Source: Bacteroidota bacterium
GTDB lineage: Bacteria > Bacteroidota > Bacteroidia > Bacteroidales > GCA-2748055
Length of the DNA stretch: 64,000 nt
NCBI GenBank assembly: GCA_039714655.1
Contig: JBDLIX010000005.1
Location: forward strand, 16,509-80,508
Reading direction: 5' to 3'
The notes under the pieces were generated by a model. That model made no database searches. It saw only the letters and a program-made list of their open reading frames with translations, and was not told where the DNA came from. This document shows, piece after piece, positions 36,101 to 40,931 of the stretch; positions within the stretch are counted from its first letter, which is position 1; each line of letters begins with the position of its first letter. The position numbers and the translations under genes are program-made.

Positions 36101-36214
36101 GGGGGGCTTATTACTTCAACAATGCTTACCCTCATCGTAATACCTTGTATCTATATGTTCTTTGGACAATTAGGGAGGAAAGGTGAAAGAATAAATAGTT
36201 TACAGGGTGAATAA
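33113..36214 (+). CDS. RND efflux permease (AcrB/MdtB-like), paralogue 1
   Basis: 1033 aa with a 12-TM AcrB layout. N-terminal ITRFSVNYPVSVSMIII. TM4 motif GMLVDNAIVVLENIF. TM10 GIAVNDSIILVD. C-terminal LIVIPCIYMFF. Confidence 0.9.
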   Translation: MLKAITRFSVNYPVSVSMIIIATLLLGYISFDKLGIDLFPNLHSPRLYIELAAGERPPEEMEEKFVDPVEALAIRQSGVVNVSSTSRVGVALVEVEYTWEKDMNEAFLDLSKALSSFNQDDELEEINITQYDPNSTPVMLVAFQHTETDDLNELRKTAENYVKNELIRLEGIADVEVDGAEEIEVLVETNDYLLNSFNLDISTITNRITSYNQNVSGGSIVEMGKRYIVRGLSELEQIRDLEQIIVKMGHSTEEATGERVPVLLRDVATITMTPKEQQNSVLLNGEPCVGLSIYKEMRYNTVKAVEELREALEEMHRSLPGFTFTIVEDQGDYISSAIGEVSDSLIGGIVLAVFVLFLFLRRIGPTAIVSVAIPVSIIATFVLMYFTGLTLNIMTLGGLALGAGMLVDNAIVVLENIFRNHEQGLSVREAAITGTSQVGGAIVASTMTTIVVFIPIVYLRGASGELFKEQAFTVAFSLLCSLVVAILIIPMLYSRIYRKRSPFSGKVKQSIQLTGYGRFLEKLLSFKTWVLLGTASLMVAGWFMLKQTGSEFMPKADVNEFYVDLKMPEGTELQRTSGAVVSVETILREISGDGVELIYSEIGPTSGLSTGGENLFDDQNMATIKVKLNPGSQIPANSIIVALTGHFKDNPNFTALFRQEESALQTILGTNESPLVVELIGDEMDELETMSVQIMEKLEQIEGIRNISSSVEGGAPEVEIAIDRYRAGLMNVDVNTLINRVSEKLQGAEAGQMSVRGDLTDITVKLEDITLKELEMLTVEVDNTEILLREVADISMGSSPREILHNNQNRIIEISADLDQGLPLDRIAVEIEERLKDVEFPPEYSYKITGEEAMRKESMGNLGFALLLSLILVYMVMASQFESLVHPFTILLPVPLAVVGAVAVFYFQGKSLNIMAIIGIIMLVGIAVNDSIILVDAINQFRKEGMKLKEAIVAAGQRRIRPIIMTTLTTILALFPLTLGFGESASLRSPMAWAVIGGLITSTMLTLIVIPCIYMFFGQLGRKGERINSLQGE

Positions 36215-39200: not shown

Positions 39201-40931
39201 CTGGCCATGGGAAATGCCGAATATGTCAAAGCGATCGGTCCACCCTTTGCCATCACAGTTATTGGTGGATTGAGCCTGAGCACCCTGCTTACACTTGTTT
39301 ATATCCCCATGCTCTATAGCGGGATTGAACAAGCCCTCTCCTGGATCAGGAGTCTGAACCTGTTTGTGAAGCTAGTGTTGCTTTTGTTGGAACTGACAGG
39401 AATGATTATGGTCATCCTGTACATCCAATCGTTTATCTGGCAGATGGCTGGCGGATTGGTGGTGCTGGTTGGAATTCCTGTCACATACTGGTTTGTTTCA
39501 AGTAGTCTGCGAAAGGCCAAAACAAGCATTATTTCTGCAGATGATTCCATTCATATTGAAGTATCGAACCTGGTTAAGATCTATGGAAGAGAGCCTAAAG
39601 CCATAAGAGATTTCAAGGCTGGAAATCGCATGGCGAGAAGTGTTCAAGTCCTCGAAAAAGCGTTAAAACCCAGGTTGGATGCACTGGTCTGGCAACTGCC
39701 GCTGATGGGTTTTCTGGCCTATTTTACATGGTTCTACCTGGTAAGCGGATTCTGGCAACTGGTATCATCGGTAATATTATATTACTATGTGATCCATATC
39801 ATCAACGATTTTGTCACCCTGCGAAATAGCAGGGGATTAAGGCTCCTGGTTGAGATCTTCCGGTATGCAGCTCCACTGCTGGTATTATTCTTCTATCAGA
39901 CGAGGTGGACAAACCTGGCAATAACATTGCTTGCCGGCGGATTATGGCTCCTGATTATTGCCATAGGACGTGTAGCCATTTTGATAAAAAGGGAACAGTT
40001 TGAGATCAAGGAAATTCGCCCTCTCTACCGCTGGTTTGTCTGGTTTGTAAGAATAGTGCCCGGAATTGGTCAACGGGTAGAACAGTTCAAAGCCCTAAAG
40101 GGCGTTTCCCTTCAAATTGGAACAGGGATGTTTGGTTTACTGGGGCCCAATGGGGCCGGTAAGTCCACAATGATCCGTATTATCTGCGGTATTCTGGAAC
40201 AGAGTTATGGCAAGATATGGATCAACGGGATTGATACCCAGGAGAAGAGGGAAGAGTTACAGGGGCTCATCGGATACCTTCCCCAGGAATTTGGCATGTA
40301 TGAAAACATGTCATCTTACGCTTACCTGGACTATCAGGCCATGTTAAAAGGAATCACCGATCCAGTGAAGCGTAGAAAGAGGATCAGGGAGGTACTGGAT
40401 TCGGTCCACATGTGGGAACATCGCAACAAGAAGATTGGTTCCTATTCCGGCGGAATGAAACAACGAATCGGGATTGCGCAGGTATTGTTGCATCTACCGC
40501 GCATCCTGGTGGTGGATGAGCCTACAGCCGGACTTGATCCCCGGGAACGGATACGTTTCAGGAACCTTCTGGTTGAGCTTAGCCGCAGCCGGGTGGTGAT
40601 CTTCTCCACACATATTATCGAGGACATTTCCAGCTCATGCAATACCATGGCGGTAATCAACAGGGGAGAGGTTCTCTTTAACGGCACACCCAGAGAGATG
40701 ACAGAAATAGCCCGGGGCAGGGTTTGGAAATCCACCCTTCCGGCAGCAGATTTTGAGGAGGCGACAAAAGAGTTGCTTGTGGTCCATCACATGCGTGACG
40801 GAAACAACATCAGGGTACGTTGTATCTCTGCTGATAAGCCATTCGCCGATTCAGTGGAGGAGCATCCATTGCTTGAGGATGCTTACCTCTGGTTACTACG
40901 CTCAGATAAAGAGAAGATTGCCAATCACTAA
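36207..40931 (+). CDS. fusion protein: complete RND efflux permease (paralogue 2) + 2-TM linker + ABC ATP-binding domain interrupted by a roughly 4-TM insertion
   Basis: The GTG start overlaps paralogue 1 by 8 nt. One uninterrupted 1574-codon frame. RND part to about aa 1040 (GMLLDTSVVVLENIY, LLGVVVNNGIILLDF, LVYIPMLY). NBD beta1 IHIEVSNLVKIYG at 39549. Hydrophobic insertion about 39693..39990. FKALKGVSLQIGTGMFGLLGPNGAGKST from 40086. Also YSGGMKQR, ILVVDEPTAGLD and FSTHII. Confidence 0.85.
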   Translation: MNKHFLIQRKVLISMLFIAATMLGYISWKQLKMEIFPNAELPMLYIQVSSRIDVTPEYMEQEAIIPVESMVAGLENIEKIESTAGRRQGSVLISYEERTDLKYAYLKLDEQISALRGSLTDDFTLQVVKIDLESIDNTLMSLQARGSGGIDRVRNYVDQHIVPELENIEGVATVNVFGGRQKSVDIILDRAACDAYNIAPTRVRSILSSNMNLRQYGGVVREEGRRYFIYLNAEYEEISQIEELVVGRGRDPVKLKDIAEIFYGEKEEETISRVNGKDAVSLQLVNDAQANIIELSHSVQERLKQLNREGRAFDIEVMIQENSAELMEDNINQIIRLALTGALLAIFVLWVFLRNVKLVIIVAMAMPISIFTAFNFFFAFDISINSLTLIGIALAVGMLLDTSVVVLENIYRLRTLGYKPAEAVIQGTGEVWRSIVAATGTTIAVFIPFIFSSDFLIQLLGRHIGVSIISTLVVSLFISLLLIPMAVHLILSRSDRSKREVYQKVSLNNRLVRIYLSLLKTALRNPAPTIIGVLALFFVTIITTLSVSVNQLSELETDQVVLYVTMPTGTTLETTDQLVAGMEETLLSIGEKKEVISRIEEEEATVTILLQDDYRKINNRSFGEIQSEAYELVKEMPASDITLTAPTTGMSGNRGNGGGGGGGNNQAGAAGFQQLLGIGEDEEYIVMKGQDFRLLVEVAENVQSYLEELDNISSVRLSVRENQPEVHIDFNTLLMSQYGVTQNQVMGELNSFQNEISSGVNFSQKNEEYEILIKYNDAVEGEDAEEKSMKDLESLHIPDSDDENLFELQTIAELFYASGLRDISRVNQEKQVELRYQYNEDVYDSNDLLEFARSEIEDVIANANIPSGVAVELVQEDSGLDEFKYMFLIAFILVYMILAAIFESFVTPFVLLFSIPLAAIGSFFLLSITGESLFNANTIMGFLILLGVVVNNGIILLDFINVLRQKGYRKTRAILLGGLSRVRPILITAVTTCAAMLPLAMGNAEYVKAIGPPFAITVIGGLSLSTLLTLVYIPMLYSGIEQALSWIRSLNLFVKLVLLLLELTGMIMVILYIQSFIWQMAGGLVVLVGIPVTYWFVSSSLRKAKTSIISADDSIHIEVSNLVKIYGREPKAIRDFKAGNRMARSVQVLEKALKPRLDALVWQLPLMGFLAYFTWFYLVSGFWQLVSSVILYYYVIHIINDFVTLRNSRGLRLLVEIFRYAAPLLVLFFYQTRWTNLAITLLAGGLWLLIIAIGRVAILIKREQFEIKEIRPLYRWFVWFVRIVPGIGQRVEQFKALKGVSLQIGTGMFGLLGPNGAGKSTMIRIICGILEQSYGKIWINGIDTQEKREELQGLIGYLPQEFGMYENMSSYAYLDYQAMLKGITDPVKRRKRIREVLDSVHMWEHRNKKIGSYSGGMKQRIGIAQVLLHLPRILVVDEPTAGLDPRERIRFRNLLVELSRSRVVIFSTHIIEDISSSCNTMAVINRGEVLFNGTPREMTEIARGRVWKSTLPAADFEEATKELLVVHHMRDGNNIRVRCISADKPFADSVEEHPLLEDAYLWLLRSDKEKIANH

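Follow-up and report, generated by a model that had tools for sequence, protein, structure and literature searches.

Results

A single reading frame encodes an RND permease and an ABC ATPase

The 64,000-nt stretch of DNA analyzed here (the window) comes from a Bacteroidota bacterium of the order Bacteroidales (GenBank assembly GCA_039714655.1, contig JBDLIX010000005.1) and carries a seven-gene operon whose sixth gene encodes a resistance-nodulation-division (RND) permease and an ATP-binding cassette (ABC) ATPase in one polypeptide. The gene is a single open reading frame (ORF) at 36207..40931 on the forward strand, with a GTG start and 1574 codons, and the ORF list gives exactly the frame that an initial annotation, made from the sequence alone, had singled out. 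A profile hidden Markov model scan with Pfam finds both domains on this one chain, as that annotation had anticipated: ACR_tran at residues 4-1038 (profile positions 3-1018 of 1021, E 7e-161) and ABC_tran at residues 1297-1441 (E 2e-27). The nearly end-to-end ACR_tran match, combined with hydropathy, agrees with the proposal that residues 1 to about 1040 form a complete RND permease with 12 transmembrane (TM) helices, and the motifs that had been quoted for TM4, TM10, the RND end, Walker A, the signature, Walker B and the H-loop are all found at the positions given for them (Table 1). We call the permease half RND2 and the whole protein RND2::linker::NBD, with NBD for nucleotide-binding domain; the operon also encodes an unfused RND permease, RND1. 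According to hydropathy and structure prediction, the fusion is an 18-TM inner-membrane protein made up of the 12-TM RND permease, a TM13-14 hairpin and an ABC ATPase with a TM insertion.

The fusion is continuous in genomes across the Bacteroidota

A frame of this kind could be produced by a sequencing or assembly error, namely an indel that masks a stop and a restart between separate genes, and some homologues in public assemblies are indeed split. A first database search with residues 1030-1574 (RND end, linker and ATPase) as the query returned more than 100 clusters at 49-80% identity, most of which carry both PF00873 and PF00005. No match above about 950 aa was among those listed, which we attribute to a ranking effect of close metagenomic fragments and not to split genes; later searches found full-length fusion proteins in the protein collection. 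Querying genomes, one for each species, with an alignment of linker and ATPase then gave at least 80 loci at 43-74% identity. These include isolates or complete genomes of Bacteroides faecis, B. faecichinchillae, Parabacteroides massiliensis, Prolixibacter bellariivorans, Mariniphaga sediminis, Marinifilum fragile, Marivirga tractuosa, Gaoshiqia hydrogeniformans and Flavilitoribacter nigricans, as well as a few metagenome-assembled genomes that carry the labels Calditrichaceae or Krumholzibacteriia.

Among the loci listed, 70 have at least 3.1 kb of upstream sequence, and 66 of these 70 contain an uninterrupted ORF of 1545-1616 aa at 43-79% identity, so that full-length homologues with the same architecture are readily found. 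Exact-sequence look-up showed that RefSeq, IMG and UniProt each record such fusions as single proteins of 1569-1580 aa (for example WP_025863973.1 in RefSeq), and the 90%-identity cluster of a 'MULTISPECIES [Bacteroides]' entry has 2,426 members. The entries carry unspecific names ('efflux RND transporter permease subunit', 'ABC transporter domain-containing protein'), with IMG using 'multidrug efflux pump subunit AcrB/ABC-type multidrug transport system ATPase subunit', and the family appears to sit uncharacterized under these labels. A profile of the linker alone (residues 1044-1293) matched just 142 representative clusters when run against 1.84 billion proteins; each full-length match (about 25 clusters, 1550-1590 aa) has the linker at approximately residues 1030-1295, right behind an RND-sized N-terminus, and the other matches are fragments.

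The split homologues have a simpler explanation. In two long contigs of a single study in the European Nucleotide Archive (ENA), ERZ25039514 (L001:4894-12715) and ERZ25039483 (L002:494-7132), both RND genes are divided into two to three ORFs with breaks at unrelated positions, those of the fusion gene falling in its RND part. Since the neighboring RND gene is cut as well, and at unrelated positions, these assemblies are indel-prone, and indel error of this type looks like the cause of the apparently split homologues in protein databases. The worry that homologues might always be split, which the initial annotation had named among the findings that would undo the fusion, is thus not borne out. 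The linker is also under purifying selection in the fusion frame, with a ratio of nonsynonymous to synonymous differences (pN/pS) of 0.31-0.54 and with its invariant residues present; because synonymous sites are saturated, the pN/pS values given here are upper bounds on dN/dS.

The open frame in 66 of 70 loci, the single-protein database entries (RefSeq proteins of 1569-1580 aa from many species) and the position of the linker behind an RND-sized N-terminus in every full-length match refute the artefact hypothesis. All 66 independent assemblies, from different platforms and including isolates and complete genomes, give one frame, and we consider the probability of a hidden frameshift negligible. 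The fusion is therefore not read-through noise, as had been argued from the sequence, and it is almost certainly real and functional.

Two relatives at contig edges differ in having an in-frame stop just upstream of a TM-inserted ATPase: L084:1-2433 (GCA_028748505.1; P0150) and L085:1-3765 (JGI metagenome 3300010319; P0231). Both ATPase genes begin about 60 nt from the contig end, and L085, from a high-GC organism, shows the order ATPase, 239-aa ABC2-like protein, OEP. Judged from these sequences, the two genes may represent unfused or ancestral arrangements.

The linker adds six membrane helices and appears to split the ATPase fold

The region between the two domains had been described as two extra hydrophobic helices, which is incorrect: it contains six TM helices, in a group of two and a group of four, with a conserved beta-strand between them. 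An AlphaFold2 (AF2) model of residues 1030-1574 (545 aa) was built from a 103-sequence alignment and has a mean predicted local distance difference test score (pLDDT) of 83.5 and a predicted TM-score (pTM) of 0.65. It gives the order RND TM12 tail, TM13-14, strand, amphipathic helix, TM15-18, short helix, and finally the ATPase strands with Walker A. TM13 and TM14 (model residues 23-43 and 47-76, block-mean pLDDT 84-94) are connected by a turn of three uncharged residues and followed by a K/R-rich loop, after which a beta-strand occupies ten residues, 1117-1126 (model residues 88-97). The helices of the insertion that follows (model residues 102-120, 124-148, 152-176, 180-205 and 208-231) are modeled with a block-mean pLDDT of 61-91, and the insertion has conserved W/P/F positions and a pN/pS of 0.34-0.54. 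Throughout the linker the predicted periplasmic turns consist of 2-3 uncharged residues and the K/R-rich loops are all cytoplasmic, so that the topology is self-consistent by the positive-inside rule and puts the ATPase in the cytoplasm. The earlier argument that an even number of helices after TM12 keeps the NBD cytoplasmic thus holds with six helices too.

The strand, IHIEVSNLVKIYGR (pattern IxIxVxNLVKIY), is the most conserved element of the linker, and its residues I1117, K1124 and Y1126 show no variation across 103 homologues or across 70/70 full-length orthologues. The corresponding segment of a canonical ABC ATPase forms strand beta1 and bears the A-loop aromatic residue, against which the adenine ring of ATP stacks. 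The free ATPase of the operon, ABC1, begins with EIRIKNLGKTYPG and then GFQALDNIDLNI; the fusion has IHIEVSNLVKIYGR, about 165 further residues, and QFKALKGVSLQI. The contiguous ATPase core has no aromatic residue at the canonical A-loop site, approximately 23-25 residues before Walker A, and ABC profile matches to it start at model position 13-16. Splicing the distant strand to the core extended the match to the GldA model to position 2 with a gain of 9.3 bits, whereas the native contiguous sequence gained only 0.7 bits; gains with three other ABC models were smaller. The predicted strand, its invariant I/K/Y residues, the splice test and the lack of a contiguous A-loop aromatic lead us to infer that the ATPase is split between beta1 and beta2, with beta1 and the A-loop Tyr separated from the core by an insertion of about 165 residues that would comprise the amphipathic helix and four TM helices. 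An origin of the linker helices as a degenerate ABC-2 membrane domain, or as kin of the downstream membrane protein P237, found no support (hhalign probability 0.4%).

The ATPase half is the most conserved part of the protein

Walker A, the Q-loop, the signature, Walker B with the catalytic Glu, the D-loop and the H-loop are invariant in the 70 full-length orthologues and the 103 homologues, and the fused ATPase is, judging from these motifs, catalytically intact. Its core is the most conserved region of the protein, with a mean identity of 75% to the window protein and a pN/pS of 0.06-0.17. Mean identity falls to 62-65% in the RND membrane helices and 39-45% in the RND porter domains (pN/pS 0.19-0.28 for the whole RND part, residues 1-1040) and to 26-33% in the linker helices (pN/pS 0.31-0.54); the linker outside the beta-strand, at 19-33% identity, is the least conserved region.

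Searches of PDB by sequence and by fold return ABCA4, ABCA7, ABCA1 and ABCA3, TM_1403, NosF and LptB as the closest relatives of the fused ATPase, and among NCBIfam models it matches DrrA, GldA and RbbA, all below their cut-offs. On this basis its sequence and fold assign it to the ABC-2/ABCA class, which includes exporters of lipids, glycolipids and drugs (ABCA, LptB, Wzm/Wzt, DrrAB). Neither ATPase of the operon reaches the GldA equivalog cut-off (TIGR03522, 402.6 bits), with scores of 176.7 bits for the fused and 191.3 bits for the free paralogue. The two are 44% identical over 270 residues (E 2e-81), C-terminal extension included, which confirms the by-eye alignment that had led the fused domain to be called a genuine paralogue of the free ATPase with a shared C-terminal extension.

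The RND half is diverged, with a non-canonical proton relay

RND2 is a full-length permease whose hydropathy profile shows 12 TM helices and large periplasmic loops at residues 30-333 and 548-887. Its closest solved relative is MdtB (9lyq_B, E 6e-69), with which it aligns end to end. It scores well below the NCBIfam cut-offs for RND_permease_2 (443 vs 1250 bits) and MdtB (261 vs 1584 bits), and by these comparisons it is a diverged RND lineage and not an equivalog of a named pump.

Within the membrane domain, the TM4 Asp (residue 401), the TM4 Glu, the TM10 Asp, the TM10 Asn-Asn pair (residues 951-952) and the TM11 Arg are invariant among RND2 orthologues. In all 70 of them the first TM4 Asp, corresponding to AcrB D407, is kept, while the D408 position is Thr, Asn or Ser and the K940 position is Asn. 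The unfused RND1 family has the same non-canonical relay across its orthologues, which indicates that the change characterizes the lineage and did not arise from the fusion. We accordingly rejected the idea that RND2 alone lost proton coupling and took ATP instead.

A Gly/Asn/Ser-rich low-complexity loop, GMSGNRGNGGGGGGGNNQAGAAG, lies at 38151..38219 (residues 649-671) in the second periplasmic (porter) region of RND2. A G-rich loop of this kind, of varying length, is present in 13/13 orthologues inspected, and the aligned position in RND1 is ordinary sequence.

The fusion belongs to a conserved seven-gene operon

As far as gene content and order can tell, the operon is inherited as a unit across the Bacteroidota (Table 1). 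The order PERM1147, outer-membrane factor, adaptor, RND1, fusion, P237 is constant in essentially all of the roughly 80 loci listed; RND1 is present in every locus with enough upstream sequence, and RND1 and RND2 always occur together. The complete set of seven is present in B. faecis (47% identity), with a 297-aa free ATPase in the ABC1 position. The very close spacing of the genes suggests translational coupling: ABC1 and PERM1147 overlap by 1 nt (TAATG, 27021..27025), the RND1 stop and the GTG start of the fusion overlap by 8 nt (GTGAATAA, 36207..36214), and P237 starts 4 nt past the stop codon of the fusion (40929..40938). RND1 and the RND2 domain are 28% identical over their full length (BLASTP). 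The adaptor scores above the curated RND_mfp cut-off, and both it and the outer-membrane factor are encoded in the same operon as the fusion.

PERM1147 has approximately seven N-terminal TM helices by hydropathy and a predicted periplasmic region of about 870 aa that ends in Golvesin_C. It matches no NCBIfam model and has no sequence relative in PDB, and the only match within the region of about 870 aa is the C-terminal Golvesin_C. The C-terminal part of PERM1147 stands directly upstream of the outer-membrane factor gene in 63/63 evaluable loci, and this co-inheritance with the fusion suggests that PERM1147 is probably part of the same machine.

P237 is always encoded directly downstream of the fusion. 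The 237-aa ORF noted in the initial annotation exists, and an independent gene caller recorded the identical product (P0263). P237 has about 2,900 relatives (counted as clusters), of which the named ones are called 'hypothetical protein', and its exact sequence was found in only one 6.5-kb Logan contig. Matches to four ABC2_membrane Pfam families, all weak, were obtained for 8 of 15 P237 orthologues (best E 0.0025), and a precomputed PF12698 annotation is attached to some relatives. No match was found among PDB sequences, and its AF2 model is poor (pLDDT 60), with NosY as the top Foldseek hit by TM-score (0.30, E 8.7) and nothing significant. Kinship of P237 to the N-terminal domain of PERM1147 likewise found no support (hhalign probability 0.2%). 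From its similarities and position, P237 is probably the ABC-2-type membrane partner of the fused ATPase.

Table 1. Genes of the operon and features of the fusion protein, in window coordinates
Feature	Residues	Position (nt)	Strand	Evidence or annotation
ABC1, free ABC ATPase, 296 aa, first gene of the operon		26133..27023	+	Pfam ABC_tran, E 1.5e-34; DrrA/GldA-class by NCBIfam, below cut-offs
PERM1147, ABC-2 (NosY-like) permease, 1147 aa		27023..30466	+	Pfam ABC2_membrane_2, residues 7-198 (weak, E 2.9e-5); Golvesin_C, E 1.3e-12
Outer-membrane factor, TolC/OEP family, 504 aa		30498..32012	+	Pfam OEP, E 3.3e-49; NCBIfam NodT/TolC-type, below cut-offs
Periplasmic adaptor (membrane fusion protein), 353 aa		32032..33093	+	RND_mfp, 200.8 bits vs cut-off 94.9; Pfam HlyD_D23
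RND1, complete unfused RND permease, 1033 aa		33113..36214	+	Pfam ACR_tran, E 1e-213
RND2::linker::NBD fusion		36207..40931	+	ORF listing, Pfam, orthologue ORFs, database entries
RND2 domain, 12 TM and two large periplasmic loops	1-1040	36207..39326	+	Pfam ACR_tran, hydropathy
RND2 TM4 motif GMLLDTSVVVLEN	397-409	37395..37433	+	
RND2 TM10 motif LGVVVNNGIILLDF	946-959	39042..39083	+	
RND2 end LVYIPMLY	1030-1037		+	
TM13-TM14 hairpin, predicted to bring the chain back to the cytoplasm	1052-1105	39360..39521	+	AF2, hydropathy
Putative displaced first ATPase beta-strand and A-loop, IHIEVSNLVKIYGR	1115-1128 (strand 1117-1126)	39549..39590	+	AF2, conservation, splice test
Predicted insertion within the ATPase: amphipathic K/R-rich helix and TM15-18	1131-1149 and 1153-1260	39597..39986	+	AF2
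ATPase core and C-terminal extension	1294-1574	40086..40931	+	Pfam ABC_tran
Walker A GPNGAGKST	1313-1321	40143-40169	+	
Q-loop of the fused ATPase		40272-40289	+	
Signature YSGGMKQR	1413-1420	40443-40466	+	
Walker B ILVVDEPTAGLD with catalytic Glu	1433-1444	40503-40538	+	
H-loop FSTHII	1466-1471	40602-40619	+	
P237, six-helix membrane protein, 237 aa		40936..41649	+	Six hydrophobic segments

Behind the operon, 41666..43968 encodes a GH20 hexosaminidase-like protein together with a membrane acyltransferase (HGSNAT/DUF5009-like); on the upstream side, at 22276..24123, is a GH2 gene. The GH20/acyltransferase pair is kept only in the closest relatives (L001, L003) and is therefore probably outside the system.

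Discussion

RND and ABC pumps are taught as two distinct energy classes of tripartite efflux systems, the former driven by protons and the latter by ATP. A review of these systems published in Chem Rev in 2021 presents ABC, RND and major facilitator superfamily (MFS) transporters as alternative inner-membrane engines and contains no RND-ABC fusion. A 2018 survey of Bacteroides transporters does not mention one either, and the words 'fused' and 'fusion' are absent from it. Full-text literature searches, which left the catalogues TCDB and InterPro outside their range, likewise returned no description of an RND-ABC fusion, in keeping with the initial remark that the protein fits no described transporter class.

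By its components, the fusion system combines a tripartite RND pump with an ABC-2 exporter; the seven genes include all that a tripartite pump requires, and all that one or two ABC-2 transporters would require. It resembles MdtABC-TolC (MdtB2C) in having two tandem RND paralogues and one adaptor per operon, and in score RND1 leans slightly toward MdtC models, RND2 toward MdtB models. However, the scores lie far below the equivalog cut-offs of the MdtB and MdtC families (261 vs 1584 and 401 vs 1774 bits), MdtB and MdtC lack the ATPase, the extra TM helices and the ABC genes in the operon that are all present here, and where the MdtB relay has Asp-Asp in TM4 and Lys in TM10, the residues here are Asp-Thr/Asn and Asn. 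The likeness to ABC-2 or type V exporters (DrrAB, NosFY, Wzm-Wzt, ABCA) lies in the class of the ATPase by sequence and fold, in its C-terminal extension, and in the small six-TM protein with weak ABC2_membrane similarity encoded next to it. Adaptor-associated ABC-2 exporters include E. coli YbhGFSR and YhiI-RbbA. Unlike the fusion, none of these exporters has its ATPase joined to an RND permease or carries membrane helices between the first and second ATPase strands. MacAB-TolC also combines an ATP-driven inner-membrane component with an adaptor and a TolC-like channel, but MacB, of type VII, carries its ATPase at the N-terminus and has four TM helices plus a large periplasmic domain between TM1 and TM2, whereas here the ATPase is C-terminal and of the ABC-2 class, the periplasmic turns of the linker are just 2-3 residues long, and the periplasmic machinery is a full RND permease. 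A conceptual precedent is ArsAB, in which a secondary-type carrier gains an ATPase partner and potentially two energy modes. It differs in that ArsA does not belong to the ABC ATPases nor ArsB to the RND proteins, they are made as two polypeptides, and neither is homologous to the RND-ABC fusion.

The constant gene order, the presence of PERM1147 in 63/63 evaluable loci, the tight junctions, the adaptor score above its cut-off and the kinship to MdtB all suggest that the operon encodes one machine. We tentatively favor a composite envelope exporter in which an ATP-driven ABC-2 module is physically coupled to a heteromeric RND pump and hands substrate to it; we hold this explanation as a whole at slightly more than even confidence, and the hand-off mechanism at slightly less than even. 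The seven products would assemble into a single envelope-spanning exporter. RND1 and RND2 would form a heterotrimer, by analogy with MdtB2C, docked to the adaptor and the outer-membrane channel, and the ABC-2 module, consisting of the fused ATPase and P237, would be tethered to this trimer, possibly with the free ATPase and PERM1147 included. The substrate, amphiphilic or lipid-like, would start out in the cytoplasm or the inner leaflet; the ABC module would extract or flip it and pass it to RND entry sites in the outer leaflet or periplasm, from which it would be expelled through the channel. An RND paralogue without an ATPase could also reconcile the three-fold symmetry of an RND trimer with the two-fold symmetry of an ATPase pair: a homotrimer of the fusion would have three ATPases, while a heterotrimer would have either two, forming a homodimer, or one, paired with ABC1.

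Several points weigh against this composite exporter. The ABC-RND contact, the heterotrimer and the substrate hand-off are proposals drawn from sequence and gene context. The assignment of P237 as an ABC-2 permease, although probable, rests on weak matches and gene position. That the displaced strand pairs with the ATPase sheet is likewise a proposal. Both RND paralogues lack equivalents of D408 and K940, which leaves proton coupling unproven as far as sequence can say. The flanking glycoside hydrolase genes, conserved only in close relatives, give no pointer to a substrate. Finally, protein cleavage or internal initiation of translation, which we consider very improbable, would be compatible with the sequence.

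Other ways of joining the two halves need to be weighed against the composite exporter. The fusion could be a truly dual-energized machine, in which a heterotrimer-tethered pair of ATPases couples ATP mechanically to the RND cycle through the 18-TM protomer while the proton-motive force (PMF) is also used; the TM insertion in the ATPase fold would then be the coupling element and substrate would be moved across both membranes. We regard this as a minority possibility, though a substantial one. An ATP-energized or ATP-gated RND pump, in which the fused ATPase drives or licenses the RND cycle and so replaces or adds to the PMF, with P237 as an accessory or anchor that forms no transport pathway, seems unlikely to us. 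It would account for the invariant lack of the TM10 Lys and the second TM4 Asp in both paralogues, for the covalent link and the six-helix linker with TM13-14 right behind TM12, which put the ATPase beside the RND membrane domain, and for the ATPase being the most conserved part of the protein. However, a proton path may well exist, given the invariant TM4 Asp, TM4 Glu, TM10 Asp and TM11 Arg, and the unfused RND1 has the same relay, so that the change is not tied to the fusion. ABC ATPases, moreover, usually act through a coupling helix of a dedicated membrane domain, and a candidate for such an ABC-2 partner, P237, is always encoded 4 nt downstream.

The fusion might instead be a tether that fixes the co-localization and stoichiometry of two independent exporters of the same pathway, which would be coupled neither mechanically nor through their substrate. 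Proteins of one pathway often become fused, the linker outside the beta-strand is the least conserved region, and the two relatives at contig edges may be unfused. Against this, the fusion is kept down to 43% identity with no confirmed split among 66 intact genomes, and the invariant residues, the six well-predicted TM helices and the insertion into the ATPase fold are hard to square with mere co-localization; we think a tether quite unlikely. There is still less to recommend the idea that processing or an internal start yields separate RND and TM-anchored ATPase proteins as the working parts. Gene callers, when run on fragmentary or indel-prone contigs, do report products of 500-900 aa with starts internal to the gene, and the weak or atypical ribosome-binding signals of Bacteroidota make internal starts hard to judge from sequence. 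However, alignments of the boundary between RND and linker show no conserved Met or other start and no cleavage-like motif, and the frame is open in all intact genomes, a constraint that separate translation would not need.

A covalent RND-ABC protein in many Bacteroidota, including gut Bacteroides and Parabacteroides, would provide a test bed for whether two energy sources can be combined in one machine. It would bear on how substrate could pass from a pump that works at the cytoplasmic side to an RND pump that captures from the periplasm, and on how a three-fold RND trimer can be fitted with a two-fold ATPase dimer. An ABC ATPase that, as appears to be the case here, has four membrane helices set between its beta1 and beta2 strands is an unusual variation on a very well-studied fold, and the dual-energized reading, if true, would define a transporter class without a described precedent. 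For the gut commensals themselves, the operon represents an abundant envelope exporter behind a generic label, one that could matter for the export of drugs, bile, lipids or glycans.

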